Shown here: piece by piece, positions 9,013 through 36,312 of the stretch
Position numbering within the stretch: the first letter of the stretch is position 1
Layout of the letters: every line of letters starts with the position of its first letter
Source of the DNA: a virus
Taxonomy: Duplodnaviria; Heunggongvirae; Uroviricota; Caudoviricetes
DNA length: 37,547 bases
Direction: 5' to 3' (one strand)
IMG/VR virus record: IMGVR_UViG_2724679539_000004
Made by a program: the position numbers and the translations under genes
The notes under the pieces: model-generated
Told to the model about the DNA's origin: nothing
The model's database searches: none
What the model saw: the letters and a program-made list of their open reading frames with translations, nothing else

Positions 9013-9324
9013 ATGACGACACCAACCAGACGGATAAGTTTCTATCTGAAGCCTGTGGCCGTCAAGAACGAAAGCGAAGCATGCGCCTGGCTGGACAGCC
9101 TTACACCAGAAGCCCGCAAAAGCGGCCAACGCGTGGCTTTTCTGGCCGGGCTGGCACTTCTGAAAATGAATCCAGCAGAGGCTTACCGACTGGCTGCATG
9201 GGCTGACGATGAGGCGTTATCAGTGACACAAACCAGGACAGAATGCCCCGCGTCACAGCCAGTATCAACCGCACAGATAACCAGTCAGATGGCCGGAAAT
9301 ATCCGGGCGTTATTTCCCGAATAA
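9013..9324 (+). CDS. parR: ParR/StbB-like centromere-binding adaptor
   Basis: 103 aa; RRISFYLKPVAV...AFLAGLALLKMNP...IRALFPE parallels R1 ParR as recalled; directly downstream of parM. Confidence 0.6.
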   Translation: MTTPTRRISFYLKPVAVKNESEACAWLDSLTPEARKSGQRVAFLAGLALLKMNPAEAYRLAAWADDEALSVTQTRTECPASQPVSTAQITSQMAGNIRALFPE

Positions 9325-13757: not shown

Positions 13758-13911
13758 TGCTCCCCCTGAGTAATTACAGGAAGATTACCCGCGCGCGAAA
13801 CTGTTCTCCTTAACCCCCTGTTCTGGCCGTTTTCTTACAACAAAAGCCCTTTGTATCAGCCTGTTACGCTTTGCCATCATGACTGAAGAACCAGTCAGAG
13901 GGGCAAAAACT

Positions 13912-19191: not shown

Positions 19192-19819
19192 GGCATTCAC
19201 CCGCGTGGATGAAACCTTTGAGGCCATCCGCGACAGCCTGAATCAGCAGGCCATCAATAACATCGCCAGAAAGCTGGCACAGGATTTACGCCGCGCCCAG
19301 CAGGCGCGCATCCGGTCACAGAAAGCGCCGGACGGGACCGCATGGACACCACGCAGACGCCGCGTAACCCGGATACAGGAACGCATTCGCTTTATCTGGA
19401 ATAACGAAGCACGCACGCTGAAAAACTGGCATCACGACACGGGGAAATACGGGCGAACCATTACCGGGTGGGATGAGGATAAAAACAATATCCGCACGTT
19501 TTACCGGGATGACATCGACCGTTTTCTGGAAATACGCACCCGGCGCATCAACCAGGACAGCACAAAGCGCGTCCCCATGTTCGCAAAACTGCGCACCGCC
19601 CGCTACCTGAAAGCCCGTGCAGATGCTTCCGGTGTGACGGTGGGTTACAGCGGCGTGGCCGCACGTATTGCACGCGTTCATCAGTTCGGTGAGCGCGATC
19701 AGGTTGCGCCGGGCATTTTCACCGATTACCCGGTACGTGAGCTGCTGGGTATCAGCCAGGCAGATGAGCGCCTGATTTATAACACGGTGCTGGGCCGGAT
19801 TGCGGAGGCTGTACGGTGA
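19175..19819 (+). CDS. S: Tail completion/virion morphogenesis protein S-like
   Basis: 214 aa; position match. Confidence 0.65.
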   Translation: MKAMDKAFTRVDETFEAIRDSLNQQAINNIARKLAQDLRRAQQARIRSQKAPDGTAWTPRRRRVTRIQERIRFIWNNEARTLKNWHHDTGKYGRTITGWDEDKNNIRTFYRDDIDRFLEIRTRRINQDSTKRVPMFAKLRTARYLKARADASGVTVGYSGVAARIARVHQFGERDQVAPGIFTDYPVRELLGISQADERLIYNTVLGRIAEAVR

Positions 19820-20397
19820 GCGCAGAACTCATGCGGCTACTGAGCAATATCATCCGCACCGGGATCATCTCTGAAGTTGATGAGAAGTCCTGGCGCGTGC
19901 GCGTTCGCAGCGGCGAACTGGAAACAGGCTGGTTGCGCTGGAACACCACGCGCGCGGGAGCCTTCAATGTGTGGCTGCCGCCATCACCAGGCGAACAGGT
20001 GGCAATTGCCTGCATTGGCGGCAACCCGGAAACCGCCATGATAATTGGCAGCCTGTGGAGTGATGCCATTCCGGCCCCCGGAAAAAGCCTGAAAGAAATC
20101 GTGGTCAGCGCGCCGGATGGCGCGGTGTTCCGCTACGACGCGGACGCAGGCGCACTGAGCGCCAGCGGCATGAAAACAGCCACCCTGCAGGCATCCGTCA
20201 GCGTGACACTGGATACGCCCGTCGTGGAATGCACAGACCTTCTGAGAACGGCGACGCTTGACGTCACAAAAGGGGGAAAGATGAGCGGCAATATCACGCA
20301 CAGCGGCGGCAATTTCACCTCAAACGGCATTACCGTGCATACGCATAAACACGGTGGCGTTAAAGGTGGCAGCGATTCGACAGGAGGCCCGCAGTGA
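19816..20397 (+). CDS. V: Baseplate spike protein V-like
   Basis: 193 aa; position match. Confidence 0.75.
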   Translation: MSAELMRLLSNIIRTGIISEVDEKSWRVRVRSGELETGWLRWNTTRAGAFNVWLPPSPGEQVAIACIGGNPETAMIIGSLWSDAIPAPGKSLKEIVVSAPDGAVFRYDADAGALSASGMKTATLQASVSVTLDTPVVECTDLLRTATLDVTKGGKMSGNITHSGGNFTSNGITVHTHKHGGVKGGSDSTGGPQ

Positions 20398-21644: not shown

Positions 21645-22245
21645 TTCACTGTTACCGCCATCAGCCAGCAGTTTCATGCGTTGTGCCGAAGCCGTCGGAA
21701 CACGCATTACAGACATTCCGGTAGACCTCAATACGCTGTGGTCGCCGGATACCTGCCCGGTGCATCTGCTGCCTTATCTCGCCTGGGCGTTTTCCGTTGA
21801 CCGCTGGGATCGCAACTGGCCGGAAGAGACAAAGCGACAGGTAATTCGTGATGCATGGCTGATACACCGACACAAAGGGACCATCAGCGCACTGCGAAGA
21901 GCCGTGGAGCCTCTCGGCTACCTGATTGAAGTAAAGGAGTGGTGGCAACTCAACGAGGAGCCAGGAACATTTCGCATTGTTGTCGGAGTACTTGATCAGG
22001 GCATCACCGATGAAATGTATCAGGAACTTGAGCGCCTTATTGCGGATGCAAAACCAGTAAGTCGCCATCTGACGGGGCTGGCGATCAGCCTGAGTGTGAA
22101 CGGAAAGATTTTCGTTGGTACGGGATGCTATCACGGCGATGCCCTGACGGTTTATCCCTACACCCCGGAGTCCATTATTGTCGAAGGGGATTATTTCCCT
22201 GCCCCGGCCATTCATTTAATTGATAATCTGAGAGTAAACGCATGA
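21637..22245 (+). CDS. I: Baseplate protein I
   Basis: 202 aa from ATG 21637 overlapping J stop. Confidence 0.75.
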   Translation: MSNSLLPPSASSFMRCAEAVGTRITDIPVDLNTLWSPDTCPVHLLPYLAWAFSVDRWDRNWPEETKRQVIRDAWLIHRHKGTISALRRAVEPLGYLIEVKEWWQLNEEPGTFRIVVGVLDQGITDEMYQELERLIADAKPVSRHLTGLAISLSVNGKIFVGTGCYHGDALTVYPYTPESIIVEGDYFPAPAIHLIDNLRVNA

Positions 22246-23912
22246 CAGTGAAATACTACGCCATTCTGACTAATCAGGGCGCGGCACGACTGGCTAACGC
22301 GACGATGCTCGGCAGTAAGCTGAATCTGACGCAAATGGCCGTTGGTGATGCAAATGGTGTGTTACCAACACCAGACCCTGCACAAACAAAACTGATTAAC
22401 CAGAAACGCATTGCACCGCTGAATCTTCTGAGTGTTGACCCTAACAATCAGAGCCAGATTATTGCGGAACAAATCATCCCTGAAAACGAGGGAGGATTCT
22501 GGATCCGTGAGATTGGTCTTTATGATGATGAAGGCGTACTTATTGCGGTGGCAAACTGCCCGGAAACGTACAAACCGCAGTTGCAGGAAGGCAGTGGACG
22601 CACCCAGACTATCCGCATGATTCTGGTTGTCACGAACACCGAAGCCATCACGCTGAAAATCGACCCGTCTGTGGTTCTGGCAACCCGCAAATATGTGGAT
22701 GATAAAATCTCAGAGCACGAACAGTCACGACGTCACCCGGACGCCTCGCTGACCGTAAAAGGTTTTACTCAGTTAAGCAGTGCAATTAACAGTGAATCAG
22801 AAACACTGGCCGCAACACCGAAAGCGGTTAAGGCTGCATATGACCTGGCTAACGGGAAATATACCGCCCAGAACGCCACCACTACACAAAAAGGGATTGT
22901 TCAGCTCAGTAGCGCCACGAACAGCACGTCTGAAACGCTGGCAGCGACACCAAAAGCTGTTAAGGCGGTAATGAATGAAACGAAAAAGAAAGCACCATTA
23001 AACAGCCCGGCACTGACCGGAACGCCAACAACACCAACGGCGGCACAGGGGACTAATAGTACCCAGATCGCAAGCACGGCTTTCGTTATGGCCGCGATTG
23101 CCGCACTTGTAGATTCGTCACCTGATGCACTGAACACGCTGAACGAACTGGCTGCGGCGCTGGGCAATGACCCGAATTTTGCGACCACCATGACTAACGC
23201 GCTTGCGGGTAAGCAACCGAAGGATGCCACCCTGACGGCGCTGGCGGAGCTTGCCACATCAGCAGATAAACTCCCATATTTTACAGGGGCAGATCGTGCC
23301 GCGTTAACCGCGTTGACAAGTGTTGGACGTGCCATTCTTGGCAAAACCAGCACTCAGGGAGTTCTTGATTACCTTGGTTTGGGGGAAGGCTCTGCGTTGC
23401 CCGTTGGTGTACCCGTTCCGTGGCCCTCAGCTACACCGCCAACGGGCTGGCTGAAATGTAACGGCGCAGCATTTTCTTCTGAAGATTACCCCAAACTGGC
23501 ACAGGCTTACCCCGCGAATAAATTACCGGATCTACGGGGTGAATTTATCCGTGGCTGGGATGATGGACGTGGCTTGGATGCTGGGCGTGCCTTGCTAAGT
23601 CTTCAGGATGACTCCTTTGAAGCGCACAGGCATGAGTCCTTTTTTTATGCGGGTATTTCACGTAATGAAACACCATTAAAAAATCTTCCAAGTTCAGACG
23701 AGATGCTGACTTTAAGTTCCACAACTAATGCCTTGTCCCCGGACAGTATTGATGCCACCAACTCGTTAATTGGTAATGACGATTACAACTGTCTTATCGA
23801 AGGGAATAAAAATAACAAACGAACAGCGACAGGACTGAGTACCAGTATTGTCGGCACAGCAGAAACACGCCCCCGCAACGTTGCATTCAATTACATCGTA
23901 AGAGCCGCATGA
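22242..23912 (+). CDS. H: Tail fibre protein H (constant N-terminal part fused to cassette 1)
   Basis: 556 aa; N-terminus MTVKYYAILTNQGAARLANA typical of P2 H/Mu S fibres; C-terminal 179 aa is the first of six cassettes. Confidence 0.85.
   Translation: MTVKYYAILTNQGAARLANATMLGSKLNLTQMAVGDANGVLPTPDPAQTKLINQKRIAPLNLLSVDPNNQSQIIAEQIIPENEGGFWIREIGLYDDEGVLIAVANCPETYKPQLQEGSGRTQTIRMILVVTNTEAITLKIDPSVVLATRKYVDDKISEHEQSRRHPDASLTVKGFTQLSSAINSESETLAATPKAVKAAYDLANGKYTAQNATTTQKGIVQLSSATNSTSETLAATPKAVKAVMNETKKKAPLNSPALTGTPTTPTAAQGTNSTQIASTAFVMAAIAALVDSSPDALNTLNELAAALGNDPNFATTMTNALAGKQPKDATLTALAELATSADKLPYFTGADRAALTALTSVGRAILGKTSTQGVLDYLGLGEGSALPVGVPVPWPSATPPTGWLKCNGAAFSSEDYPKLAQAYPANKLPDLRGEFIRGWDDGRGLDAGRALLSLQDDSFEAHRHESFFYAGISRNETPLKNLPSSDEMLTLSSTTNALSPDSIDATNSLIGNDDYNCLIEGNKNNKRTATGLSTSIVGTAETRPRNVAFNYIVRAA
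23362..23387 (+). repeat. hix/gix-like 26-bp crossover site A (inside H)
   Basis: TTCTTGATTACC-TT-GGTTTGGGGGAA; left half nearly identical to hixL as recalled. Confidence 0.6.
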
Positions 23913-23931
23913 AAACGTTGGTTTGGGGGAA
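23906..23931 (+). repeat. hix/gix-like crossover site B
   Basis: CGCATGAAAACG-TT-GGTTTGGGGGAA. Confidence 0.6.
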
Positions 23932-24429
23932 GGCTCTGCGCTGCCCGTTGGTGTGCCCGTTCCATGGCCCTCAGCCACGCCGCCAACGGGGTGGCTGAAA
24001 TGTAACGGTGCAGCATTTTCTTCTGAAATGTACCCCAATCTGGCAAAAGCCTACCCCACCAATAAATTACCGGATTTACGCGGTGAATTTATCCGTGGCT
24101 GGGATGATGGGCGTGGTGTGGATGCGGGGAGAGCAATATTATCCGCTCAGGGCGATGCCATACGTAATATCTATGGTGAGTTCAGGACTGTAAACACCGA
24201 AAATTATTCAATATGGGAATCAGTAGGCTCGTTTAAGGGGGCCGTGGTGCCTTTGAACCCCTCAACGAACAATAGTTATTTCTCCTTAGTCAGAAGTATG
24301 GTGACAGAAAGGTCCGAGGGAGGTGTTTACCCAAAAGTGATAGGCCTTGATGCTTCAAGAATTGTTCCAACTGCAAACGAAAACCGTCCTCGTAACATTG
24401 CGTTTAATTACATCGTAAGGGCAGTATGA
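23920..24429 (+). CDS. Promoterless tail-fibre C-terminal cassette 2 (tail-collar-like domain)
   Basis: No ATG; conserved N-end GEGSALPVGVPVPWPSATPPTGWLKCNGAAFSS, RGEFIRGWDDGRG collar motif, conserved C-end RPRNIAFNYIVRA, divergent middle. Confidence 0.7.
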   Translation, partial: GLGEGSALPVGVPVPWPSATPPTGWLKCNGAAFSSEMYPNLAKAYPTNKLPDLRGEFIRGWDDGRGVDAGRAILSAQGDAIRNIYGEFRTVNTENYSIWESVGSFKGAVVPLNPSTNNSYFSLVRSMVTERSEGGVYPKVIGLDASRIVPTANENRPRNIAFNYIVRAV

Positions 24430-24448
24430 AAACGTTGGTTTGGGGGAA
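24423..24448 (+). repeat. hix/gix-like crossover site C
   Basis: AGTATGAAAACG-TT-GGTTTGGGGGAA. Confidence 0.6.
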
Positions 24449-24898
24449 GGCTCTGCACTGCCCGTTGGCGTGCCCGTTCCGTGGCCTTCAGCAACACCGC
24501 CAACGGGGTGGCTGAAATGTAACGGCGCAGCATTTTCTTCTGAAATGTACCCCAATCTGGCAAAGGCTTACCCAACGTTAAAATTACCTGATTTACGCGG
24601 TGAGTTTATCCGTGGTTGGGATGATGGGCGCGGGGTGGATGCGGGAAGGGGCATCTTAAGCATACAGGGGTGGTTAACAGGAAGTCATTATCATAATATT
24701 CGGTCATGGGACGCGTGGGATAACACGGTACTGGTGCCAAATGACAAAGGAGGGGATAGTCTGTTGTCGACAGATAACGCCGTCCGGCAAGGTGCAATTA
24801 ACGGTAGATTTACCAGTCAATACAGAACGGAATCCTCAGTGGGGAATGAAACCCGCCCACGCAATATTGCCTTCAATTATATTGTGAGAACCGCATAA
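24437..24898 (+). CDS. Promoterless tail-fibre C-terminal cassette 3
   Basis: Same conserved ends, distinct central segment. Confidence 0.7.
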   Translation, partial: GLGEGSALPVGVPVPWPSATPPTGWLKCNGAAFSSEMYPNLAKAYPTLKLPDLRGEFIRGWDDGRGVDAGRGILSIQGWLTGSHYHNIRSWDAWDNTVLVPNDKGGDSLLSTDNAVRQGAINGRFTSQYRTESSVGNETRPRNIAFNYIVRTA

Positions 24899-25509
24899 TG
24901 AATAACGCGATATTAAATGATGACCTTATTGCCGTACAGGCAGGAAACATCGTCGTTTATAACTATGATGGTGAGACACGGGAATATATTTCCGAATCAA
25001 CTGAATATCTTGCTGCGGGTGTCGGTATTCCGGCAAATTCCTGTTTAGATGCCCCGGGCGCACATAAAGCGGGCTATGCTATCCGCCGTTCGGAGAATTT
25101 AAATTCATGGGAGTATACGCCAGATCATCGTGGTGAAACCGTCTATAGCACTGACACGGGAAACACCGAAGAAATCACGACGCTGGGTGACTACCCGAAA
25201 AATACAACCACTATCGCCCCGTTAACACCATACGATAAATGGGATGGTGAAAAATGGGTGACAGATACTGAGGCACAACATGGTGCCGCAGTAGAAGCGG
25301 CAGAAACCAAGCGCCAGTCACTGGCTGATGCGGCAATGGCTTCCATAAGTCTGATTCAGTTGAAGTTGCAGGCCGGGCGGAAGTTGACGCAGGCAGAAAC
25401 CACCCGGCTTAACGCCGTGCTGGATTATATAGACGCACTGAACGCAATGGATATAAACATGGCACCAGATATCAACTGGCCGGAAATACCACTGGCAGCA
25501 GCCAGTTGA
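24898..25509 (+). CDS. Tail fibre assembly chaperone (P2 gpG / Mu U family)
   Basis: 203 aa; C-terminal DINWPEIP resembles Tfa-family C-termini; lies between forward and inverted cassettes. Confidence 0.75.
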   Translation: MNNAILNDDLIAVQAGNIVVYNYDGETREYISESTEYLAAGVGIPANSCLDAPGAHKAGYAIRRSENLNSWEYTPDHRGETVYSTDTGNTEEITTLGDYPKNTTTIAPLTPYDKWDGEKWVTDTEAQHGAAVEAAETKRQSLADAAMASISLIQLKLQAGRKLTQAETTRLNAVLDYIDALNAMDINMAPDINWPEIPLAAAS

Positions 25510-25515
25510 ATATAA

Positions 25516-25995
25516 CTAAGCCGCCCTCACGATATAGTTAAATGCAATATTGCGGGGGCGGGTTTCACTACCACCTGTGTTACCAATACTTCCTCGTGAA
25601 TGAAGCGTTGGTGATGGAATCAAACTCCCTCCTGTATTTGTGGCATCAAGCCCCCTGCCTTGTGTATATGTTTTTTTGAAAATCGTGGCCAACTCCCATT
25701 CATCCTTTGTGTCATATCCATCGTTAGCTACAACAATATGGCGGTGTTTTTCCAACATCCCGGTTTGAATGCTCAATAAAGCGCGTGCTGCATCAATTCC
25801 TCGCCCATCATCCCAGCCGCGAATAAATTCGCCCCGTAAATCCGGTAATTTATTGGCGGGGTAGGCTTTTGCCAGTTTGGGGTACATTTCAGAAGAAAAT
25901 GCTGCACCGTTACATTTCAGCCAGCCCGTTGGTGGTGTTGCTAAGGGCCACGGAACGGGCACACCAACGGGCAGTGCAGAGACTTCTCCTAAACC
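25516..25995 (-). CDS. Promoterless tail-fibre C-terminal cassette 4 (inverted)
   Basis: Same conserved ends on minus strand. Confidence 0.7.
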   Translation of the reverse strand, partial: GLGEVSALPVGVPVPWPLATPPTGWLKCNGAAFSSEMYPKLAKAYPANKLPDLRGEFIRGWDDGRGIDAARALLSIQTGMLEKHRHIVVANDGYDTKDEWELATIFKKTYTQGRGLDATNTGGSLIPSPTLHSRGSIGNTGGSETRPRNIAFNYIVRAA

Positions 25996-26009
25996 AACGT
26001 TTTCATGCG
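25984..26009 (-). repeat. hix/gix-like crossover site D (inverted)
   Basis: minus strand reads CGCATGAAAACG-TT-GGTTTAGGAGAA. Confidence 0.6.
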
Positions 26010-26509
26010 GCTCTTACGATGTAATTGAATGCAACGTTGCGAGGGCGAGTTTCTGTACCTACATTTCCACTAATTTCACCAAACCGTTTTACATTACGAG
26101 AGCTAATGGCTCGTAGTGAGGAAGGCACCTTTAAACCGGGTTCGTCTGTTTTAACTATTCCCCCGTCCCCGTATGTAGCCAGTATTCCAGGGTTTACTCC
26201 TTCCCGTGCACTTCCCGCGGCAAGTCCGCCCCCGGTCCATAATTCCATATAGTGTGCATGATCCAAAATTGTGTGTGGCTGCCAATTAAGCAAAGCGCGA
26301 CCAGCATCCACCCCGCGCCCATCATCCCAGCCGCGAATAAATTCTCCCCGTAAATCCGGTAATTTATTGGCGGGGTAGGCTTTTGCCAGTTTGGGGTACA
26401 TTTCAGAAGAAAATGCTGCGCCGTTACATTTCAACCACCCCGCTGGCAGCGTGGCTGAGGGCCATGGAACGGCCACACCAACAGGCAGCGCAGAGCCTTC
26501 CCCCAAACC
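26003..26509 (-). CDS. Promoterless tail-fibre C-terminal cassette 5 (inverted)
   Basis: Same conserved ends on minus strand. Confidence 0.7.
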   Translation of the reverse strand, partial: GLGEGSALPVGVAVPWPSATLPAGWLKCNGAAFSSEMYPKLAKAYPANKLPDLRGEFIRGWDDGRGVDAGRALLNWQPHTILDHAHYMELWTGGGLAAGSAREGVNPGILATYGDGGIVKTDEPGLKVPSSLRAISSRNVKRFGEISGNVGTETRPRNVAFNYIVRAA

Positions 26510-26523
26510 AACGTTTTCATGCT
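26498..26523 (-). repeat. hix/gix-like crossover site E (inverted)
   Basis: minus strand reads AGCATGAAAACG-TT-GGTTTGGGGGAA. Confidence 0.6.
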
Positions 26524-26948
26524 GCCCTTACGATGTAATTAAACGCAATATTACGAGGACGAATGGTTACATAATTAACCCCATCACCTCGTGAAGGCCC
26601 TGCAAATGAAAAACGGGAAAAGCCTGGTTGGTTAGAAACAATTTGGTCATAGTTATTGATTGAATGACCAGACCCAATGTCGAAATTACCTCCGTAATGA
26701 GAAAAACTTGTACCATCCTGCCCTGAAAGCAGGGTACGTCCCGCATCAATCCCGCGCCCATCATCCCAGCCACGGATAAATTCACCGCGTAAATCCGGTA
26801 ATTTATTGGTGGGATAAGCCCTTGCCAGTCTGGGATACATTTCAGAAGAAAATGCTGCACCGTTACATTTCAGCCAGCCCGTTGGTGGTGTTGCTGAGGA
26901 CCACGGAACGGGCACACCAACGGGCAGTGCAGAGCCTTCCCCCAAACC
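26517..26948 (-). CDS. Promoterless tail-fibre C-terminal cassette 6 (inverted)
   Basis: Same conserved ends on minus strand. Confidence 0.7.
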   Translation of the reverse strand, partial: GLGEGSALPVGVPVPWSSATPPTGWLKCNGAAFSSEMYPRLARAYPTNKLPDLRGEFIRGWDDGRGIDAGRTLLSGQDGTSFSHYGGNFDIGSGHSINNYDQIVSNQPGFSRFSFAGPSRGDGVNYVTIRPRNIAFNYIVRAA

Positions 26949-26962
26949 AACGTTTTCGTTTT
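26937..26962 (-). repeat. hix/gix-like crossover site F (inverted, next to invertase promoter)
   Basis: minus strand reads AAAACGAAAACG-TT-GGTTTGGGGGAA. Confidence 0.55.
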
Positions 26963-27015
26963 ATCCCTACCTATACCAACTATGTATTTTTCACGAAACA
27001 AAGAGGATGTTTTTT

Positions 27016-27615
27016 ATGCAAATTGGCTATATTCGTGTGTCAACAAATGACCAGAACACGGATTTACAACGCAATGCACTGAACTGCGCAGGATGTGAAC
27101 TGATTTTTGAAGATAAAATCAGCGGAACGAAATCAGCCAGACCGGGATTGAAAAAACTGCTCAGAACGCTATCAGAAGGAGATACGCTGGTTGTCTGGAA
27201 GCTGGACAGACTGGGCAGAAGTATGAAACACCTGATCACGCTTATTGAGGAATTGCGGGAAAAAGGTGTTAATTTCCGTAGTCTGACGGACAGCATTGAC
27301 ACATCAACACCCATGGGGCGTTTCTTTTTTCACGTCATGGGGGCTTTAGCCGAAATGGAACGTGAATTAATTGTAGAGCGTACACTGGCCGGGCTGGCAG
27401 CAGCACGCGCACAAGGACGCATTGGCGGACGTCGCCCGAAGTTGACAAAAGAACAACATGAGCAAATAGCGAGACTGATTAAAAACGGTCATGACAGGAA
27501 ACAACTGGCGATCATTTACGACATCGGCATATCGACGATTTATCGTTATCACCCTGTAGGCGATATACAGGCTGAAGAAACAACCAGGCAGACTCAGGAA
27601 AATGAAAACCGCTAA
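27016..27615 (+). CDS. Serine DNA invertase (Gin/Hin/Cin/Pin family)
   Basis: 199 aa from ATG 27016; MQIGYIRVSTNDQNTDLQRNAL with catalytic Ser, GDTLVVWKLDRLGRS, C-terminal HTH; near-identical in pattern to Gin as recalled. Confidence 0.9.
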   Translation: MQIGYIRVSTNDQNTDLQRNALNCAGCELIFEDKISGTKSARPGLKKLLRTLSEGDTLVVWKLDRLGRSMKHLITLIEELREKGVNFRSLTDSIDTSTPMGRFFFHVMGALAEMERELIVERTLAGLAAARAQGRIGGRRPKLTKEQHEQIARLIKNGHDRKQLAIIYDIGISTIYRYHPVGDIQAEETTRQTQENENR

Positions 27616-27634
27616 TCTGACCATTAGCGGTTTT
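27605..27634. terminator. Bidirectional hairpin between convergent invertase and U genes
   Basis: AAAACCGCTAAT-ctgacc-ATTAGCGGTTTT perfect 12-bp stem. Confidence 0.5.
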
Positions 27635-27641
27635 GCGTTAA

Positions 27642-28136
27642 TCAAAACAGCCCTTTAACGGAGCTGGCCGCGCTGTTAAGGGATGATGTGACCTTATCTT
27701 TGAAGCCGGACAGCATATCACTGAACGATGAGGATTGCAGGCGCTCCCGCAAATCCTCATCACAGCGTTCAAGAGTCAGTGAAAATTCTATCTTTTTCGC
27801 CTTACCGTAGCGATCAAACTCGGAACGGGTCGTATTCGTTTCAGTCAGTACATACATGCCGTAAATCTGCCCGACACCATCAATCAGAGGCCAGGGGCGT
27901 CCTGTATATGCCTGCGTGGTCAGCAACGAAAGCGACACTTCGCCACCTGTAATTTCAGGATAAAGCACGCCGGAAAGCACGATGCGCTCATCACCTGCAC
28001 CGATATACTGCCAGCTTGCTGAACGGTTAACACGTTCATTTTTCACATGCCGCCAGCTTTTGTTTTGCTGTAACTGCTGATGCGGCAGTGTGCGCAGCTC
28101 AAAAACAAACATGCCGTAGATCATCATCATGGCCAT
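27642..28136 (-). CDS. U: Tail protein U-like
   Basis: 164 aa (P2 U about 159 aa); follows tape measure. Confidence 0.75.
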   Translation of the reverse strand: MAMMMIYGMFVFELRTLPHQQLQQNKSWRHVKNERVNRSASWQYIGAGDERIVLSGVLYPEITGGEVSLSLLTTQAYTGRPWPLIDGVGQIYGMYVLTETNTTRSEFDRYGKAKKIEFSLTLERCDEDLRERLQSSSFSDMLSGFKDKVTSSLNSAASSVKGLF

Positions 28137-28142
28137 GACTCC

Positions 28143-30986
28143 TCAATCTTTATCGTAAAAACTGCCACGTCCGGCACGGTCGCGTCGTTCCAATTCTGCC
28201 CTGACCATTTCACCGACCAGTTTCGCCAGTTCGCGGGGATTCTGCGTAACAACGTTATGCAGATGAACATGAATTTCACCGCCAAATCCGGAGGCAACAG
28301 GCTCCCGGTTACGGAAAGTTACAGGAACTGATGCCACTGGAGATCGTATGGCCTCCGCCACCGGGCGGGAGCTGGCCGCAACAACAGGGACCAGCGCCGG
28401 AGGCAGCGGAGCCGGGACCACGGGTGTGATATTAATTGCGGGGGCAGGCTTACTGACCTGCGCAATCTTCCGCTCCTGCCACTCCCCACGAACAGCAAGT
28501 GCGCGGGGCAGGTTCTTAAAGACAATATCGCCGGGGCCAATGCGTTTTTTCGTCTCATCAACCAGCTTACCTGTGTTATCAGCAATTTTGCTGAGTCTGC
28601 GTAGCGTCCCGGTATTGCTGTCTGTGAGCGGTTTGTTGTCTTTGGGTTTATCACCTCCGGTGCCATTGCCATTTTCCACAGGCTTCGGCGGATTGATTTT
28701 CGCCAGGTCACCCTGAAGCAAGGCAACCTTGTCCTGAAGAATGGCCGCACGCTGTGCGTCTTCGATTTTCTTGCGCGCCCTTTCCGCTTCATCCGGAAGG
28801 ACGCCAAGTTTTTCAAGTATCCACGCCAGCGTATCCAGTAGCATTTTTGCAGGTGTCAGAACAAGCTGTAACGCACCGCCAAGAACGTTACCGAATATCT
28901 CGCCAGCACTGGTACATTTATCCAGCGTTTCCTTGCTGGACTCCATCGGTGACAGCAGCGATTTAAACCAGTTAAACACCTGGCTGATCCCGCTTCCGAT
29001 TGCGTCAAAAACAGGACCAAACCGTTCAAAGGTTTCGCGCAACGGGGTCAGCCTTTCCATAATCCCGCTGAACACCCCGGCAAAAAATGCCCTGATGGGA
29101 TCCCAGTATTTCCAGATAAGAACGGCAGCTCCGGCAAGCGCAGCCACGATAAGACCAACCGGACTGAACAGCGCCCCGATAGCGCCTCCCAGTAAAGAAA
29201 CGGAACCCGTCACCATTCCCCATAGCGCAGGCAACACCCTGACGACATTCATTGACCGGGTAAGAATGTCAAAACCAAGACGCAGGGTGGCCAGCTTCCC
29301 GTAAAGCACCCCAATAACCAGCGACAACGAGCCAATCGTTGCAGTCATTGCCAGCAACGCACCGCCTGCTATCAGTAGCTGGCGCGTCAGTACCGGATGG
29401 GCCTGCGCCAGCGAGGTGATTTTTTCAAGCACCCGCGTGAGCCACTGCGTGACAGAACGCAGCGGACCGTCAACCAGATCACTGATGCGAATACGAAGAC
29501 CTTCCCATGCGCTGTCGAGATTTTTCAGGTCCCCATCAAGATTATCGGCCATTACTTTTGCAACGCGATCGGCCTCTCCCCTTGCCCCCTGCAATTCTCT
29601 GGTCAGTTTTTGCAGCTCTCCTGAACCAGCCGCCGCAACAAGCGTCTGCAAACCAACGAACGCCTCTTCTCCGGCGATGTCCTTGAAGAAGGAGACCTGG
29701 TCCACCTGTCCGTATTTTTGTGTCGCCTTATAGAGATCAAGCAGCACATCCTCCATCGGGCGCATTTTGCCTCTGGCGTCAGCAACTGACACCCCCAGCT
29801 CTTTCAGTGCATCAGCCGCAGCTTTTGGCGGTGATGCAAGGCGGGACAGACTTGCGCGCATGGCCGTACCAGCATCGCTTCCGCGAAGACCATTATTGGC
29901 AAGCATCCCTGCCATGGCCGCCGCTTCTTCAAGACTGATACCAAGTTTTGCGGCAACCGGACCGGTATACTTCATGGTTTCGCCCAGCGCGCGTAAATCA
30001 GTATTGGTCCGGGTGAATGCTGCTGTCAGCGTATCGCCAACCCGGTCCATTTGATCGGCTGTCAGGTTGAACTGTGTGAGGATATTGGAGCCTATATCAG
30101 CCGTCTCGCCGAGTTCGACGCCACCTGCCAGCGCCATATTAAGAACACCGGGCAATGCGGCCTGAATGGCCTGCGGAGTAAAACCAGCCATTGCCAGAAA
30201 GCTCTGCCCACTGGCGGCATCACTCGCAGTAAACTGTGTTTCAGAGCCAAGTTTTAACGCCTGCTCACGCAGCGCCTTAAACTGCGGGCTGTTTTTGTCG
30301 ATTCGCGTCAGTGCCTGAACGCGGGACATCTCTTTGCCGAACCCGATCGCAGGCTGCAAAAAACGCCCGGCAGCATAGCCGCCCGCCGCTGCCGCACCAA
30401 TTGCCAGCGCACCACCTGTTTTCAGTTTTCCCGCTGTTTCCTGCGCGCGCGAATACCGCTCACGCGCCCGCGTTACACGCGCAAGCGCCTGCCGTTCGCG
30501 TTCAAGCTGGTTGTTGTACTGTTCGGTGCGTCTGATGGCCTGCTGGATGGTGTTATCGCTACCTGTCAGGGAAATGCCGTGGCGTTTTAGCTCTCCGCCA
30601 AGTTCCCGCATTTTCTGAATTTCCCGTGTGCGCGATTCATTCAGGCGTTCAAGCCGGGTGCTTAACTGCTGCATCAGCTTTTGTTGTTTTTCGCTGAGCA
30701 CTGTACCCGTGCGTTGTAACTGATTAAGGGCGTTAAGCTGGCGTCGTGCTTTCACGATGCCCGCATCCGCTTTACTGACAGCGTCACGGGCGCGCTCAAA
30801 TGAACGCGCCTGACGCTCGAGATTTTTGATCGCCCCCTGCGTTCGCTGGATGGAGTCACCAAACTGCCCCATCAGGCGGCGGGCGTTTTCGGCAGGCCGG
30901 GTCAGCCTGTCAACGGCGCTGAAAGCGACCCGGATATCAAGAGTCTTCATTGTCTGCATTCCCGCTGCGAAGTGCCGCCCGCTCAC
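28143..30986 (-). CDS. T: Tail tape measure protein T
   Basis: 947 aa; coiled-coil and Gly/Ala-rich TM-like segments typical of tape measure. Confidence 0.85.
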   Translation of the reverse strand: MSGRHFAAGMQTMKTLDIRVAFSAVDRLTRPAENARRLMGQFGDSIQRTQGAIKNLERQARSFERARDAVSKADAGIVKARRQLNALNQLQRTGTVLSEKQQKLMQQLSTRLERLNESRTREIQKMRELGGELKRHGISLTGSDNTIQQAIRRTEQYNNQLERERQALARVTRARERYSRAQETAGKLKTGGALAIGAAAAGGYAAGRFLQPAIGFGKEMSRVQALTRIDKNSPQFKALREQALKLGSETQFTASDAASGQSFLAMAGFTPQAIQAALPGVLNMALAGGVELGETADIGSNILTQFNLTADQMDRVGDTLTAAFTRTNTDLRALGETMKYTGPVAAKLGISLEEAAAMAGMLANNGLRGSDAGTAMRASLSRLASPPKAAADALKELGVSVADARGKMRPMEDVLLDLYKATQKYGQVDQVSFFKDIAGEEAFVGLQTLVAAAGSGELQKLTRELQGARGEADRVAKVMADNLDGDLKNLDSAWEGLRIRISDLVDGPLRSVTQWLTRVLEKITSLAQAHPVLTRQLLIAGGALLAMTATIGSLSLVIGVLYGKLATLRLGFDILTRSMNVVRVLPALWGMVTGSVSLLGGAIGALFSPVGLIVAALAGAAVLIWKYWDPIRAFFAGVFSGIMERLTPLRETFERFGPVFDAIGSGISQVFNWFKSLLSPMESSKETLDKCTSAGEIFGNVLGGALQLVLTPAKMLLDTLAWILEKLGVLPDEAERARKKIEDAQRAAILQDKVALLQGDLAKINPPKPVENGNGTGGDKPKDNKPLTDSNTGTLRRLSKIADNTGKLVDETKKRIGPGDIVFKNLPRALAVRGEWQERKIAQVSKPAPAINITPVVPAPLPPALVPVVAASSRPVAEAIRSPVASVPVTFRNREPVASGFGGEIHVHLHNVVTQNPRELAKLVGEMVRAELERRDRAGRGSFYDKD

Positions 30987-31475
30987 GCCAGCTAACCACT
31001 TCGCCGGGCGTCATCATGAAGATTTCGGCGGGCGACCAGTTAAAAATGGCGGCGATATCTGCCACCAGATCTTCGATGTGCTCAAAGCACACCAGGGTGA
31101 TTACGCTGCCGTCTCCTGCACGCTCTTCGCGCCAGAGTCTGGCTCGCTCATAAAATTTACAGCCACAGCGCACAACTGAATAAAATCGCGTGAAGACATT
31201 TTTTTAATCATCACTTCATCCAGTCGTGGCGAGGTCACGCGAGGCAACAGCGTGAACATGGTATCCGCTTTCAGATTCAGCACATCAGACAGCGACAGAC
31301 CACGCAGGGATCCAGCCTGTTCAATAGCCCCGGTGATCTCCACATACGTGATTTTTTCGCCACCACGCTCAATTGGTCGGGTCAGTTTTACGCCACGTTC
31401 GACAGCCATATCCTCACCTGCCGTCACATCATCCGCCGCGGTGTTATTCCGGGTTTCAGTATCGATGTCTTTCAT
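30937..31475 (-). CDS. E+E' programmed -1 frameshift product (GT-like)
   Basis: Slippery heptamer A_AAT_TTT (plus-strand 31152-31158) in E frame; -1 frame stays open to 30937, overlapping T start. Confidence 0.55.
31101..31475 (-). CDS. E: Tail assembly chaperone E (G-like)
   Basis: 124 aa; aaggag SD; precedes T; slippery site near 3' end. Confidence 0.7.
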   Translation of the reverse strand: MKDIDTETRNNTAADDVTAGEDMAVERGVKLTRPIERGGEKITYVEITGAIEQAGSLRGLSLSDVLNLKADTMFTLLPRVTSPRLDEVMIKKMSSRDFIQLCAVAVNFMSEPDSGAKSVQETAA

Positions 31476-31530
31476 CAGTTTTCTCCTTTTCAGTCAGAGG
31501 CGACGCACTGCGCCGCCTGCATATTACTTA

Positions 31531-32043
31531 TCAGCCAAGCCCGAGCGCGGAACGGATACGGTCAGGCACAATGTCCTTGCCGTCCTTCCGGTAAATGAAG
31601 TTCAGCAGGTCAATCTCCCACAACGGGCGATCGTTAACACTCAGCTTGTAGTAGGTGTTTTTAATGGCGTAAGTGTGTGATGTGGCTTCGCCCTGTTTGG
31701 CTTCCCCCATATCAATTTCCGTCACACGTCCGCGCATTTCGACTTCATACAGGTCGCTTTCTGCATCGGTGTAGTATTCACCCGCAAAACGCAGCAGCGT
31801 GCCGTCAATCGTGCCGCCATACTTAAGGAACAGCTCACGAACTGCGCCCCCCATGACAAAGCTCGCATCAAGCGCGGAGTCGTCCAGACCGAGATCAATA
31901 CTTACCGCACCCATCATGCCACCACCCCGGTAGCTGTCGGTTTTGCGCGTCAGCTTAGGTAGAGTGACGGACGTCACCTTACCCACTTCGTTTTCACCAT
32001 CCACAAACAGCGTAAAAAAGCGAAGATGTTTTGGTACAGCCAT
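31531..32043 (-). CDS. FII: Tail tube protein FII
   Basis: 170 aa; TLPKLTRK and EVEMRGR motifs resemble P2 FII as recalled. Confidence 0.85.
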   Translation of the reverse strand: MAVPKHLRFFTLFVDGENEVGKVTSVTLPKLTRKTDSYRGGGMMGAVSIDLGLDDSALDASFVMGGAVRELFLKYGGTIDGTLLRFAGEYYTDAESDLYEVEMRGRVTEIDMGEAKQGEATSHTYAIKNTYYKLSVNDRPLWEIDLLNFIYRKDGKDIVPDRIRSALGLG

Positions 32044-33227
32044 CAGGCACCTCCCAGCACCGCAAATGCGGGACCAAAGAATTCATCAGTAAACGACTGG
32101 TAAAGCTCCATGTCTTCCAGCGGGGGAACGGGCGTATATTTGTAGCGAATACGCACACGCCCCTGACGTAAATCCGTGGTGCTGTTATCCACCACGTCAT
32201 ACCAGCACTCCGCGCCAATCAGTTTCCCGGCAGTAACCAGTGAATCCAGTTTTGCCCTGATGGCACTGATAACATCCTTCACGTTCGCAGGCGTCAGTGG
32301 ACTGTCGATGGTTTCAAACTGCGCTTCCGCAATTGAATCAGCCAGCACCTGTGCGGTTCGGGTATACACCTCAAAGATGTAGGCGTTCGTTTCCGGTGTG
32401 CGGTTGCCCCAGAAGCGGAACCCGTTGCGACGAATAATGGTCGTGATTTCTTTGTTGTTGAGACTGTTGGCATCGCTGTCTTCGGCCTGCAACGACCAGA
32501 ACACATGCCTCGACATCCCCAGCACATTTTTAACCGGAACGTTGGACAGTGATTTGTGCCATCCCTGCTCATGGTCAATGTACGCACGAAGGCCGCACGC
32601 ATAGGCAGGCGCGGGGAACGTTTCGTTTTTGCCACTTTTCGGGTTGTAGGCGATGAAGTCCGGCCATAAGAGCATCACCTCACGTTCGTTGAATTTCTGG
32701 CGGTAGGTAATCGCCTCAGCCATCGTGTTACAGCCGTGACATGAGGCATACACAAACGCGCGCAGTTTACCCGCAATCACGCACAGGGATTTTGTTACAG
32801 CCTCCGTGTCCAGCTCCGGCGCGGCCAGAATACGCGGACGGTATCCGATGCTTTCATCCTGCTCTGCAACAAGCAGCGCATACATCCCCGTATAGCTGCC
32901 GTCAGATTCAGAACCACCGATAACCAGTTGATCCTGCGTTTTTCCGTCTTCTTCTTTGTGTTCAGCCACGCGAACGACGATCACCTTTGTGCTCACCTGG
33001 TCTGCGATGGCCTTAAGCGCACGATAAAGCGTCCCCGTTGTTCCGCATTTTCCCAGCACGTCATTGACGCGGGTCAGCAGTGTGGGCTTGTTCAGCGGGA
33101 ACAGCTCCGCATCCGCATCATCCGCCGTTGCCACGATACCGATAACACTGGAATCAACATCATTAATCGCTGTTACCAGGTCGGTACTTTCCGTAACACG
33201 GGCACCATGAAAACGAGTTTCACTCAT
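32043..33227 (-). CDS. FI: Contractile tail sheath protein FI
   Basis: 394 aa; FPLNKP, QEQGWHK, IRRNGFRFWGNRT, YTPVPPLE match P2 FI as recalled. Confidence 0.9.
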   Translation of the reverse strand: MSETRFHGARVTESTDLVTAINDVDSSVIGIVATADDADAELFPLNKPTLLTRVNDVLGKCGTTGTLYRALKAIADQVSTKVIVVRVAEHKEEDGKTQDQLVIGGSESDGSYTGMYALLVAEQDESIGYRPRILAAPELDTEAVTKSLCVIAGKLRAFVYASCHGCNTMAEAITYRQKFNEREVMLLWPDFIAYNPKSGKNETFPAPAYACGLRAYIDHEQGWHKSLSNVPVKNVLGMSRHVFWSLQAEDSDANSLNNKEITTIIRRNGFRFWGNRTPETNAYIFEVYTRTAQVLADSIAEAQFETIDSPLTPANVKDVISAIRAKLDSLVTAGKLIGAECWYDVVDNSTTDLRQGRVRIRYKYTPVPPLEDMELYQSFTDEFFGPAFAVLGGA

Positions 33228-33384
33228 AGCTTCAGCCCCTTGTATCCGTTAAATGATTCGGCAACAATCATCACCCACCACGCGCGTAATCTCACCCCTG
33301 CGCCATTCTCCCGCCACGGCGACAACAAAAAGCAGTAACCCCCTCCGCACGCACATGCGACCATGCCGCACAGGGAGGGAACAG

Positions 33385-34494
33385 ATGACCGACACCACCA
33401 TGCAATTGCTCAGTCAGGGCACAGACCCCGTGAAAATGCCGGATTTTGATATTCTCGCGGAGGGTAAAACGCTGTCAGGCGTGGCAGAGCGCCTGATGAG
33501 TCTGTCACTGACCGACAACCGGGGATTTGAAGCGGACCAGCTCACCATCACGCTGGATGATGCGGATGGTCAGTTGCAGCTACCGCCACGGGGCGCGCGC
33601 CTGACGGTTCTCATTGGCTGGAAAGGAGAACCGCTGACAGAAAAAGGCACTTACATTGTTGATGAAATCGCTCACGAAGGACCGCCGGACAGGCTGACTG
33701 TTTCAGCCAGAAGCGCAGATTTTCGGGATGAATTTAACGTTAAACGTGAGGTGTCCTGGCATGATGTGACCGTTGAGCGTGTGGTATCCGCCATCGCTCA
33801 TCGGTACGGTCTGAAACCGCAAATCAGCGAAATGCTGATGGATATCGAAATCGACCACGCCGACCAGACCGAAGAAAGCGACATGTCCTTTCTTACGCGC
33901 ATGGCGGAAATGCTGGGCGCAATCACCACGGTAAAAAGCGGTAATCTGTTATTCATCATGCCCGGCGGTGGCGTGAACGCACAGGGCCAGCCGTTGCCAT
34001 CGTTCGCCATCACACGCAGCAGCGGCGATCGCCATCAGTTCCGCATTGCGGACCGCGAAGCGTATACGGGGGTACGCGCCTACTGGCTTGATCTTAATTA
34101 CGGGAAAAAGAAAAAAGTCAGCGTGAAACGCCGCAAACCGCCAAAACCCAAAAAGGAGAAAAGCAGCAGCCGTGAAGGTGATTATATGGAAGGCGCGGAA
34201 GGCAATGTGTTTGTGTTACGCAAGACCTATCAGAACGAACAGGCAGCAAGACGCGCAGCGGCGGCAAAGTGGCAGCAACTACAACGCGGAGCCGCATCAT
34301 TCTCCATCACGCTGGCGCGTGGACGTGCAGAACTCTACCCCGAAATGCATGGTACGGTAACAGGATTTAAAAGCGAGATTGATAATCAGGACTGGATCAT
34401 TGCAAAAGCCGAGCACACCATTGATAACAGTGGCTTTACCACGCAGCTTGAGCTTGAGGCAAAAATCCCGGAATGGATAGCGGAAACAGAGTGA
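33385..34494 (+). CDS. D: Tail protein D (late control gene D family)
   Basis: 369 aa from ATG 33385 (SD gggaggga); position upstream of ogr. Confidence 0.8.
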   Translation: MTDTTMQLLSQGTDPVKMPDFDILAEGKTLSGVAERLMSLSLTDNRGFEADQLTITLDDADGQLQLPPRGARLTVLIGWKGEPLTEKGTYIVDEIAHEGPPDRLTVSARSADFRDEFNVKREVSWHDVTVERVVSAIAHRYGLKPQISEMLMDIEIDHADQTEESDMSFLTRMAEMLGAITTVKSGNLLFIMPGGGVNAQGQPLPSFAITRSSGDRHQFRIADREAYTGVRAYWLDLNYGKKKKVSVKRRKPPKPKKEKSSSREGDYMEGAEGNVFVLRKTYQNEQAARRAAAAKWQQLQRGAASFSITLARGRAELYPEMHGTVTGFKSEIDNQDWIIAKAEHTIDNSGFTTQLELEAKIPEWIAETE

Positions 34495-34536
34495 GGAACT
34501 TAGAATAGCGACAGCACCACGTTAAGGGAGGTCGCT

Positions 34537-34797
34537 ATGTTCCGTTGTCCGCTTTGTGGCGCATCTGCCCGTATCCGCACCAGTCGTCCGGAAAATGATT
34601 CAAACACCGTGCGGCAAAAGTATTACCAGTGTAACAACCTGGAATGCGGCGTATGCTTCTCAACACTGGAAGCTTTCCATAAATTCACATCGAAACACGC
34701 CTCCGGCGTTCACTCATCAGAAGGTATCCCGTGGCATGAGCTGCCAGCTTCACACAGGGGAAACAATCAGATGAGTTTGCCTTTATCTCAGAATTAA
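34537..34797 (+). CDS. ogr: Ogr/Delta-type zinc-finger late transcription activator
   Basis: MFRCPLCGASARIRTSR...YYQCNNLECGVCF is a C4 zinc finger like P2 Ogr; 86 aa (P2 Ogr 72 aa). Confidence 0.8.
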   Translation: MFRCPLCGASARIRTSRPENDSNTVRQKYYQCNNLECGVCFSTLEAFHKFTSKHASGVHSSEGIPWHELPASHRGNNQMSLPLSQN

Positions 34798-34987
34798 CAG
34801 GCAGAATTGCCGGAGTAACAAAAAAGCGATAGATTACGCGCGGGTGCCTTTCGGCTGATGGTCGGAGGGAATACCCGAAGGCCAGATGTGGAAAGGCCCC
34901 GGAAAACATCTCTGTTTAACCGAGGCCCTAACCGCATTACCTTAGCAAGTGATAGGTTAGCGCCTCCCTGAAAAAGGAGCAAGCGCT

Positions 34988-35128
34988 ATGTCGCAAAAAT
35001 CGCTTACGGCCATCACGTTCTGCGTGACGGCAATCCTCATCATCTGGATGCTGCACGGTTCGCTGTGCGAAATACGGATGAGCTTCTGGGGAGCGGAGTT
35101 TGCGGCGTTCTTACAGTGTAAGCAGTAA
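34988..35128 (+). CDS. hok: Hok/Gef-family type I toxin
   Basis: 46 aa; N-terminal TM helix then SLCEIR...EFAAF signature of Hok family; SD aaggag; not in ORF track (<60 aa). Confidence 0.65.
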   Translation: MSQKSLTAITFCVTAILIIWMLHGSLCEIRMSFWGAEFAAFLQCKQ

Positions 35129-35378: not shown

Positions 35379-35576
35379 ATGACGCAAAATGTACGATGCA
35401 AAAATTGCAACAAACTACTTGCCCGCGCCTCATTTCACTACATTGAAATAAAATGTCCGCGCTGCAAAACACTTAACCAGATAACGAGAGCCATCGAGCA
35501 CCCCACACACATGAGGAGTTATGACCGTGGGGATCGCAATCCAGCACCAACCAGCACATACACCGGAACACACTAA
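35379..35576 (+). CDS. com: Com-like zinc-finger translational activator
   Basis: 65 aa; VRCKNCNKLL...HYIEIKCPRCKTLN matches phage Mu Com zinc finger as recalled; overlaps start of downstream methyltransferase. Confidence 0.7.
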   Translation: MTQNVRCKNCNKLLARASFHYIEIKCPRCKTLNQITRAIEHPTHMRSYDRGDRNPAPTSTYTGTH

Positions 35577-36312
35577 GGTTTATCAGACTGACAATGCCAC
35601 GCTCTGTCGTGGGAATGCGCTGGAAATATTGCCGCTGATTGAGCCAGAAAGCATTGATGCCTTAATCACTGACCCACCTTACAGTTCGGGTGCGACACAC
35701 AAGGCCGGACGCACCAACCAGGGCAGCCATGCAAAATATCTGAACGGCGAGAACCTTCACCGCTTTGATGGGTTCGCGGGTGAAAACATGGACGCCCGTT
35801 CGTGGGCTTACTGGACACAATTATGGATGGCACAGGCACACCGCGCAGTCAGGCCGGGCGGTTATGCCCTGGTATTTACTGACTGGCGACAACTACCAGC
35901 TTTAACCGATGCGTTTCAGGCCAGTGGCTTTACATGGCGCGGCATCATTGCGTGGAACAAAGGGAGGGGGTCACGAACACCACATACCGGGTATTTCCGG
36001 CATCAGTGCGAATACATCGTCTGGGGCAGCAAAGGCCATTTAGATAAATCGCCTTCGGGACCGTTCGACGGCTGCATGACGTTCCCGGTTATCCCGTCAA
36101 AGAAAATGCACCCAACCGGAAAACCAGAAGAACTAATGGCGGAACTGGTCAGGACTGTGAATAGTGGCGGAACAGTCCTTGATCCTTTTATGGGGTCAGG
36201 GACAACGGGTGTGGCTGCACTGAAAGCAGGACGCAAATTTATTGGTATAGAAACCAGTGATCATTATTTTGATGTAGCAACACAACGGCTCAAAACGGCG
36301 ATCGAACCATAA
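35521..36312 (+). CDS. DNA methyltransferase, beta-class (DPPY before FxGSGTT)
   Basis: 263 aa; motif IV DPPYSS upstream of motif I FMGSGTTGVAA; CcrM/HinfI-like order, N6-adenine or N4-cytosine. Confidence 0.8.
   Translation: MTVGIAIQHQPAHTPEHTKVYQTDNATLCRGNALEILPLIEPESIDALITDPPYSSGATHKAGRTNQGSHAKYLNGENLHRFDGFAGENMDARSWAYWTQLWMAQAHRAVRPGGYALVFTDWRQLPALTDAFQASGFTWRGIIAWNKGRGSRTPHTGYFRHQCEYIVWGSKGHLDKSPSGPFDGCMTFPVIPSKKMHPTGKPEELMAELVRTVNSGGTVLDPFMGSGTTGVAALKAGRKFIGIETSDHYFDVATQRLKTAIEP

Follow-up and report, generated by a model that had tools for sequence, protein, structure and literature searches.

The inverted FI-U tail block of P88-like prophages is an inherited gene order and may share one Ogr-type site with gene D

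The DNA analyzed here (37,547 nucleotides in all, hereafter the window) is an E. coli prophage of the P2 family that belongs with the P88-like phages (Xuanwuvirus); its tail genes FI to U are flipped relative to phage P2. We find that this flipped tail block is the normal inherited gene order of the P88 group of P2-related phages. The departure from P2 order thus marks a lineage and is neither an error nor a switch. As an explanation of the whole arrangement, we consider it quite probable that a single ancient inversion became fixed in the P88-like lineage and that a symmetric Ogr site serves both P_F and P_D, the promoters proposed for the leftward FI-U unit and the rightward D unit, respectively.

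Gene identities were taken from the open reading frame (ORF) listing and Pfam matches, from blastp comparisons with P2 and Fels-2, and from the PGAP names in an identical genome; the window is 100% identical to a prophage adjoining flk in E. coli H9Ecoli. The Pfam matches bear out the strand assignment made in an earlier note on this DNA, with U, T, E/E', FII, and FI on the minus strand and H, the invertase, D, and ogr on the plus strand (Table 1). All of the F-operon homologues (FI, FII, E/E', T, and U) are present, in P2-type order. Because P2 and Fels-2 carry FI-FII-E-T-U-D-ogr on one strand, the FI-U block is truly inverted, as that note had proposed. It was also correct that D has been cut off from U and diverges from FI: U and D overlap in P2 and Fels-2, and the P2-type succession of U and then D on the same strand is absent from the window, where the end of U lies 5.7 kb from D on the opposite strand.

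Several of the gene calls merit comment. The reading frame of T stays open upstream as far as a GTG at 30986, and the start adopted in Table 1 is the PGAP start in the identical genome. The Pfam match of E (PF10109) is weak and falls under the curated cutoff; the protein is 35% identical to P2 E, and PGAP names it "GpE family phage tail protein" in the identical genome. The D ORF is intact and its product is 49% identical to P2 D over 376 residues. The ogr gene starts 42 bp downstream of D and encodes a protein carrying the CX2CX22CX4C (C4 zinc-finger) motif by which the Ogr/Delta proteins are defined (PMC3931495). Rfam and tRNA scans of the 27-35 kb region returned nothing.

Table 1. Positions of the tail block, its neighbors, and the observed or predicted control elements in the window.
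Feature	Position	Strand	Basis
Comparison site TTCTggccgttttcttACAACAAAA, second copy of the extended motif	13821-13845		Divergent P-O spacer
H, tail fibre	22242-23912	+	Pfam
Serine invertase	27016-27615	+	Pfam
Putative bidirectional intrinsic terminator, convergent invertase/U junction	27605-27634		Terminator scan
gpU, final gene of inverted F operon	27642-28136	-	PF06995 (Phage_P2_GpU), E 7.7e-39; 47% identity to P2 U
gpT, tape measure protein	28143-30950	-	PF10145, E 1.6e-56; 33% identity to P2 T
gpE and E' frame, tail assembly chaperone pair	E 31101-31475; E' 30937-31092	-	
gpFII, tail tube protein	31531-32043	-	PF04985, E 7.5e-47
gpFI, tail sheath protein, opens inverted operon	32043-33227	-	PF04984, PF22671, PF17482; 46% identity to P2 FI
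Divergent FI-D control region, 157 bp	33228-33384		Between FI and D
Predicted P_F -10, GATGAT	33267-33272	-	44-49 nt from dyad centre; profile
Ogr-type dyad TCTcccgccacggcgACA (TCT-N12-ACA)	33307-33324 (centre 33315.5)		Homologous position kept in relatives
Predicted P_D -10, GACCAT	33359-33364	+	44-49 nt from dyad centre; profile
gpD, baseplate hub protein, heads D-ogr unit	33385-34494	+	PF05954
Ogr/Delta-family zinc-finger late activator	34537-34797	+	PF04606, E 5e-14

The inverted order is widespread among close relatives. Of 5426 complete E. coli genomes, 1107 matched an 8-kb query (26900-34900) colinearly, as did 13 phage records, P88 among them, each in a single match. Over this stretch, P88 is 92.9% identical (98% of the length), and the Xuanwuvirus phage P884B11, phiSM, and others are 93-95% identical, the Xuanwuvirus match being judged on these 8 kb. 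P88 is annotated with the same strands as the window. Both P88 and phiSM are plaque-forming phages, active spontaneously or upon induction (PMC5285337, PMC6456863), and because they form infectious particles, the inverted layout is functional. A 757-bp probe spanning the FI-D junction found this junction in 1376 of the 5426 complete E. coli genomes, about a quarter; at least 80% of the probe was covered in one place in 1358 of these, and the remaining genomes gave partial matches. None of the E. coli genomes carrying the FI-D junction holds the block in the flipped (canonical) state.

These counts bear directly on the suggestion, one of three options in the earlier note, that the order is an assembly artefact of this single genome. 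Nothing beyond the departure from P2 order speaks for an artefact, whereas the identical, colinear order recurs in over 1,100 E. coli genomes that were finished independently, in independently isolated phages, and in 67 loci of other genera. With the junction colinear in nearly all matching genomes and present in two infectious phages, we exclude this option, and we put its remaining chance at essentially nil. A comparison of synteny with related P2-like phages, named at the outset as the observation that would argue against an anomaly, likewise shows many relatives sharing the order.

To place the inversion in a wider context, we searched 50,697 phage records by tblastn with D and FI. The divergent FI/D arrangement also appears in Salmonella phage SEN5 (Senquatrovirus) and in the Klebsiella phages Kp4871-3 (Reginaelenavirus) and Kp4847-1 (Reipivirus), so that with Xuanwuvirus four ICTV genera have the inverted order. 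In the same search, remoter P2-like phages from Burkholderia, Mannheimia, Yersinia, and Klebsiella, plus ECOO78, showed the canonical order, which in this sample of records fits its being the ancestral state. A survey of one genome per species then gave 80 loci, which were typed, along with 7 loci fetched earlier, by tblastn with the window proteins. Inverted loci, with H on the plus strand, U-T-E-FII-FI on the minus strand, and D and ogr on the plus strand, numbered 67 and came from about 30 genera, all Enterobacterales (among them Salmonella, Serratia, Erwinia, Pantoea, Klebsiella, Xenorhabdus, Photorhabdus, Providencia, Morganella, and Yersinia). D is at least 61% identical to the window's D in all 67 of them versus at most 53% in all 15 canonical loci. 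The "old rearrangement" option of the earlier note is therefore the one that this distribution supports, the order being common to phage records, E. coli chromosomes, and loci from many genera alike.

Average-linkage clustering by identity splits the inverted and canonical loci perfectly in two for D, for FI, and for U, whereas FII and J split inside the inverted group. The simplest reading is one old inversion that was inherited and fixed in a large clade; a single origin is likely rather than proven, because it rests on identity clustering instead of a rooted phylogeny. Given the mosaic nature of Peduoviridae and the rearranged tail operons of other members, Smp131 among them (PMC3931495), we also weighed whether the tail module came from another phage lineage and was inserted in the opposite orientation, with no inversion in place. 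We consider this very unlikely. Block proteins are 33-47% identical to those of P2 and flanking proteins 25-74% (mostly 36-54%), and because the block is no more diverged from P2 than its flanks, it is not a recent import. Moreover, FI and U inside the block yield the same two-way split as the flanking D, the spacing from the P_F site to FI is kept, and FI does not exceed 60% identity between any sampled canonical lineage and any inverted locus.

The serine invertase gene abuts the U end of the block, and invertases of this family invert multi-kilobase segments in Mu, P1, and p15B. The earlier note accordingly offered an inversion linked to the invertase as an option; in its strongest form, the enzyme would flip the block as a switch, with both orientations present in the population. 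However, the crossover cores (AAACCAACGTTT) occur in five copies, at 23913, 24430, 25991, 26505, and 26944, all of them confined to 23913-26955 in the tail-fibre region, where they flank alternative fibre cassettes. A search of the whole window found no core near 27615-27645 or 33228-33384, the two block borders, and a repeat search confirmed the earlier observation that no inverted repeat joins these junctions. The distribution of the enzyme points the same way. An invertase homologue beside U is absent from 54 of the 67 inverted loci and present in 9, SEN5 has the inverted order but no invertase, and the invertase of Fels-2 is 81% identical to that of the window. Because Fels-2 combines its invertase with the canonical order, invertase and block inversion are unrelated. 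A switch would also be hard to reconcile with the single state in which 1358 of the 1376 E. coli genomes hold the FI-D junction, the others being partial matches. We conclude that the invertase acts on the tail-fibre cassettes only; a link to the block inversion is excluded, and the chance that the block is a switch appears extremely remote.

At its U end, the block meets the invertase in a convergent junction. A probe for this junction was intact in 621 E. coli genomes; in many others, the U half matched, the window's invertase was absent, and the break fell at about 27636-27640. The junction contains a hairpin with a perfect 12-bp stem and U-runs on both strands, overlapping the stop codon of the invertase gene. 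Its computed folding energies are -16.9 kcal/mol on the plus strand and -15.8 kcal/mol on the minus strand (z-scores of -3.8 and -3.5). It is plausible from these features that the hairpin terminates transcripts arriving both from the invertase side and from the U side.

We next turned to the spacer between FI and D, which the earlier note had reasoned would have to hold two late promoters. The length of this spacer is 140-164 bp in nearly all inverted loci, with outliers of 177 and 195 bp, and its sequence is mostly poorly conserved except for a few islands, the strongest of which is a dyad. The P2 activator consensus is TGT-N12-ACA (as quoted in PMC3931495). Exact matches to it number 6 in the window (9.5 are expected by chance) and none falls in the FI-D spacer, so the earlier statement that the spacer lacks a TGT-N12-ACA site holds to the letter. 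It does not hold for an Ogr-type site in the broader sense: the dyad TCTcccgccacggcgACA reads TCT-N12-ACA, one mismatch from the consensus, and this single difference is why the exact search missed it. The exact test is in any case too strict and misleading when used alone, because it also rejects sites annotated in P2 itself, those at P_O/P_P and P_F, which read TGT-N12-CCA. TCT-N12-ACA by itself is not enriched in the window (15 occurrences against 12.7 expected). At the dyad position in 61 unique spacers, 34 read TGT-N12-ACA, 22 read TCT-N12-ACA, and 5 have another sequence. From the centre of the dyad, it is 88.5 nt to the ATG of FI and 69.5 nt to that of D.

A promoter profile built from 30 representatives with pairwise identities below 85%, aligned without gaps and anchored on the dyad centre, is mirror-symmetric, with -10-like hexamers at +/-44-49 and -35-like hexamers at +/-21-26, separated by 17-bp spacers. 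Conservation on the FI side reaches 94% at three positions (A at -49, T at -48, and T at -45) and 98% at a fourth (C at -23). The P_F -35-like element in the window, GTGAGA, is the reverse complement of 33290-33295, and together with the -10-like hexamer, it predicts a P_F start near 33259-33260 on the minus strand. The corresponding D-side values are 88% for A at +45, 72% for A at +48, and 85% for T at +49; here the predicted P_D start falls near 33371 on the plus strand, with the D ATG preceded by a ribosome-binding site, GGAGG. The two predicted starts would be about 111 bp apart, and the distance of the -10 boxes implies a dyad centre near -55.5. The expectation of two late promoters was reasonable, and the spacer answers it with a conserved Ogr-type dyad and two mirror-image -10 boxes, although the promoters are predicted. 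From conservation and by analogy with P2, we propose that the dyad is probably a single activator site common to both P_F and P_D. A generic sigma-70 scan gave nothing useful in the spacer, as would be anticipated because activator-dependent promoters are expected there.

The geometry of this proposed pair can be compared with late promoters whose starts are mapped. In P2, one annotated common site (3057-3087) is flanked by the P_P and P_O starts (3016 and 3127), which are separated by 111 bp, and the dyad within it, at 3063-3080, lies 55.5 nt from each start. Smp131, another P2-like phage, has already been described as combining rearranged late operons with a common P_P'/P_O' site (PMC3931495). 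Dyad and FI ATG are 75.5-88.5 nt apart in the inverted relatives and 79.5-82.5 nt apart in the canonical set (P2, Fels-2, and 11 of 13 canonical prophages), and this similar spacing fits a flipped segment that included P_F along with its activator site.

An extended form of the motif, TTCT-N12-ACAACAAAA, has two exact matches in the 37.5-kb window, one in the FI-D spacer and the other, TTCTggccgttttcttACAACAAAA, in the divergent P-O spacer. When a matrix was built from the FI-D sites only, this P-O site ranked second-best in the whole window with a score of 16.6. Because genome-wide shuffles averaged 10.5 and reached as high as 18.9, the hit argues by its location and not by its score. On the P2 genome, the same clade matrix ranked the P-O site 8th and left P_V and P_F outside the top 10; because the transfer failed, we applied the matrix within the clade only. 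SEN5 carries an exact TGT-N12-ACA in both its P-O spacer and its S-V spacer, and the cores of its P_V and P_P (TTGTT, a CGCGCG-rich spacer, and a -10) resemble its D-side promoter.

A rival reading concerns the sharing of the dyad. The inversion could be fixed while the dyad serves P_F only, with D and ogr relying on a promoter in the spacer or inside D that does not need Ogr. Consistent with such a promoter, the predicted P_D -35 of the window (TAACCC) is poor, ogr of P2 has a promoter of its own beyond the end of D, and a sigma-70-like match occurs within D at 34357-34386, upstream of ogr. On the other hand, D is a structural baseplate protein and needed late, and the D-side -10 is kept at the exact mirror position, as the conservation at +45 and +49 shows. 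In addition, the D-side core (a TTG-like -35, a CGCGCG-rich spacer, and the -10) resembles SEN5 P_V and P_P and also the window's P_P, and the spacer length is tightly conserved. We therefore regard an Ogr-independent D-ogr unit as rather unlikely and retain a fixed inversion with a shared dyad as the favored explanation.

In the history that we propose, a segment comprising the Ogr site, P_F, FI, FII, E/E', T, and U would have inverted once, long ago, and then become fixed throughout the lineage. One breakpoint would have fallen between U and D and the other a short way upstream of the activator site of P_F. The dyad-symmetric Ogr site would thus have been carried along with the flip and would now lie about 70 nt upstream of D. 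Because the dyad is symmetric and centred about 55 nt from a predicted start, it would be able to serve two back-to-back promoters. P_F would transcribe leftward from FI to U, and this operon would stop at the bidirectional terminator in common with the convergent H-to-invertase transcript; the new P_D would transcribe rightward through D and probably on into ogr. We infer Ogr binding, both starts, the sharing of the site, and the read-through from D to ogr from conservation, geometry, and the analogy with P2. Whether one Ogr-bound dyad drives mirror promoters 111 bp apart, giving a compact D-ogr unit with ogr under direct positive feedback and uncoupling the dosage of the hub from that of sheath and tube, is a matter on which we judge the chances to be evenly balanced.

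The gene order itself is already present in public reference genomes of the four named genera. In the literature, we found no published comment on the FI-U inversion, including in work on P88, SEN4/5, phiSM, PP4, and P2 defence hotspots. The inversion appears to mark a large Peduoviridae clade that spans four genera and many enterobacterial prophages, and with its junction in so many complete E. coli genomes, it could be used as a synteny character for classifying and annotating prophages. The case also illustrates how a dyad-symmetric activator site may make the inversion of an operon tolerable, because the stranded gene D would need just a -10 box at the right distance. If one dyad does drive both promoters, the dozens of natural TGT and TCT spacer variants would form a series on bidirectional RNA polymerase recruitment by a small zinc-finger activator.

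Several known systems resemble the window in part. As in the Gin/Cin/Min multiple-inversion systems, the window's invertase has its five cores flanking fibre cassettes (23.9-27.0 kb); unlike the segments of those systems, the FI-U block has borders without crossover sites and was never seen in the flipped state. Fels-2 (Felsduovirus) is also a P2-family prophage with a Gin/Cin-type invertase and an invertible fibre segment directly upstream of the tail operon, but its invertase, FI to U, D, and ogr are in canonical order on one strand. The closest counterparts are Escherichia phage P88 and its relatives (Xuanwuvirus), among them Citrobacter phage phiSM, whose order and strands are identical to those of the window; P88 differs in its tail-fibre cassettes, in the cargo downstream of ogr, and in having H as a single 2295-nt ORF. 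SEN4/SEN5 and the Reginaelenavirus and Reipivirus Klebsiella phages share the inverted FI-U block, an FI-D spacer of 153-157 bp, and a dyad in the same place, although their D is just 63-71% identical to that of the window, and SEN5, besides lacking an invertase, carries an exact TGT-N12-ACA in a separate spacer for P_V.

Two systems of P2 can be compared as well. Its F operon has the same gene set in the same FI-U order, encoding proteins 33-49% identical to those of the window, and an Ogr-type dyad 82.5 nt upstream of the FI ATG rather than 88.5 nt; in the window, FI-U is flipped as a block and D heads its own D-ogr unit on the other strand. P2 P_P/P_O has a dyad midway between back-to-back late units, as the window does with its predicted starts at a like separation. 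The P2 pair, however, drives capsid and packaging genes from mapped starts with a TGT half-site, whereas the window pair would drive the tail genes FI-U and D from predicted starts with a TCT half-site. We regard the proposed P_F/P_D pair as one more example of the P_P/P_O design already known.

The reading frame of D is unbroken from 33385 (369 aa), and its product aligns over nearly its full length to the D proteins of P2 and P88. In the RefSeq genome that is 100% identical to the window (that of E. coli H9Ecoli), PGAP instead has D begin at window position 33694 (266 aa) and calls a pseudo fragment on the minus strand over the upstream part (window 33385-33693; 26486-26794 in the H9Ecoli locus, L003), a stretch that goes by "hypothetical protein" in many E. 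coli records. This treatment of the stretch appears to be an annotation error that recurs from record to record.

A multi-cassette invertible tail-fibre region occupies 23366-26970 of the window. The crossover core AAACCAACGTTT occurs there five times, in both orientations, and the first crossover site is directly preceded by the stop codon of H (23910-23912). Six homologous cassettes encode the Collar domain, one fused to H and five following it, each of the latter beginning directly after a crossover core. This layout is closer to Min or a shufflon-like multiple-inversion system than to a simple two-state G segment.

The early region of the window carries isrK and a C4 antisense RNA in tandem, a pair of P1/P7-type immunity RNA elements within a P2-family prophage. 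At the other end, cargo genes sit beyond ogr, before the prophage end on the flk side; among these, the gene for a Mu Com-like protein overlaps the start of the DNA methyltransferase gene, reminiscent of the com-mom arrangement of phage Mu.

Features of the window and of the Salmonella phage SEN5 locus (L088), with predicted promoters where applicable
Feature	Sequence	Position	Source or promoter
isrK	window	4189-4263	Rfam
C4 antisense RNA	window	4299-4386	Rfam
Crossover cores AAACCAACGTTT, one orientation	window	23913, 24430	
Crossover cores AAACCAACGTTT, opposite orientation	window	25991, 26505, 26944	
Tail-fibre assembly gene	window	24898-25509	
hok/gef toxin	window	34988-35128	
Mu Com-like zinc-ribbon protein	window	35379-35576	
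DNA methyltransferase	window	35521-36312	
CGCGCG-rich block	window	33346-33358 and 13789-13799	P_D and P_P (predicted)
CGCGCG-rich block	SEN5	3008-3022 and 9295-9310	P_D, P_P, P_V (predicted)

A prophage whose D is 96-98% identical to that of the window's E. coli phage sits on a 226-kb contig labelled as the Gram-positive "Vagococcus sp. WN89Y" (NZ_JBQPOM010000071.1, L009); the assembly was probably contaminated or wrongly labelled. The chromosome of Symbiopectobacterium purcellii (NZ_CP189882.1) holds three inverted-order prophage copies (L013, L014 and L018), in one of which FI contains ≈0.45 kb of extra DNA, and two E. coli relatives, H7 and H12 (phages 520873 and 503458), carry an IS100 insertion in the tail gene block.

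Several of the late promoters that we predict in this clade, namely P_D and P_P in the window and P_D, P_P and P_V in SEN5, share a CGCGCG-rich block between their -35-like and -10-like elements. Within the FI-D spacer, this block is conserved on the D side and missing from the FI side. The S-V spacer of SEN5 is 157 bp long (L088 9262-9418) and carries an exact TGT-N12-ACA, the Ogr-type activator dyad consensus. Because the S-V gap of the window is only 11 bp (19819-19831) and contains no recognisable P_V site, P88-like phages may read O through H and the invertase as a single unit. If so, these phages would have two bidirectional late control regions, as compared with the four late promoters at three sites in P2.
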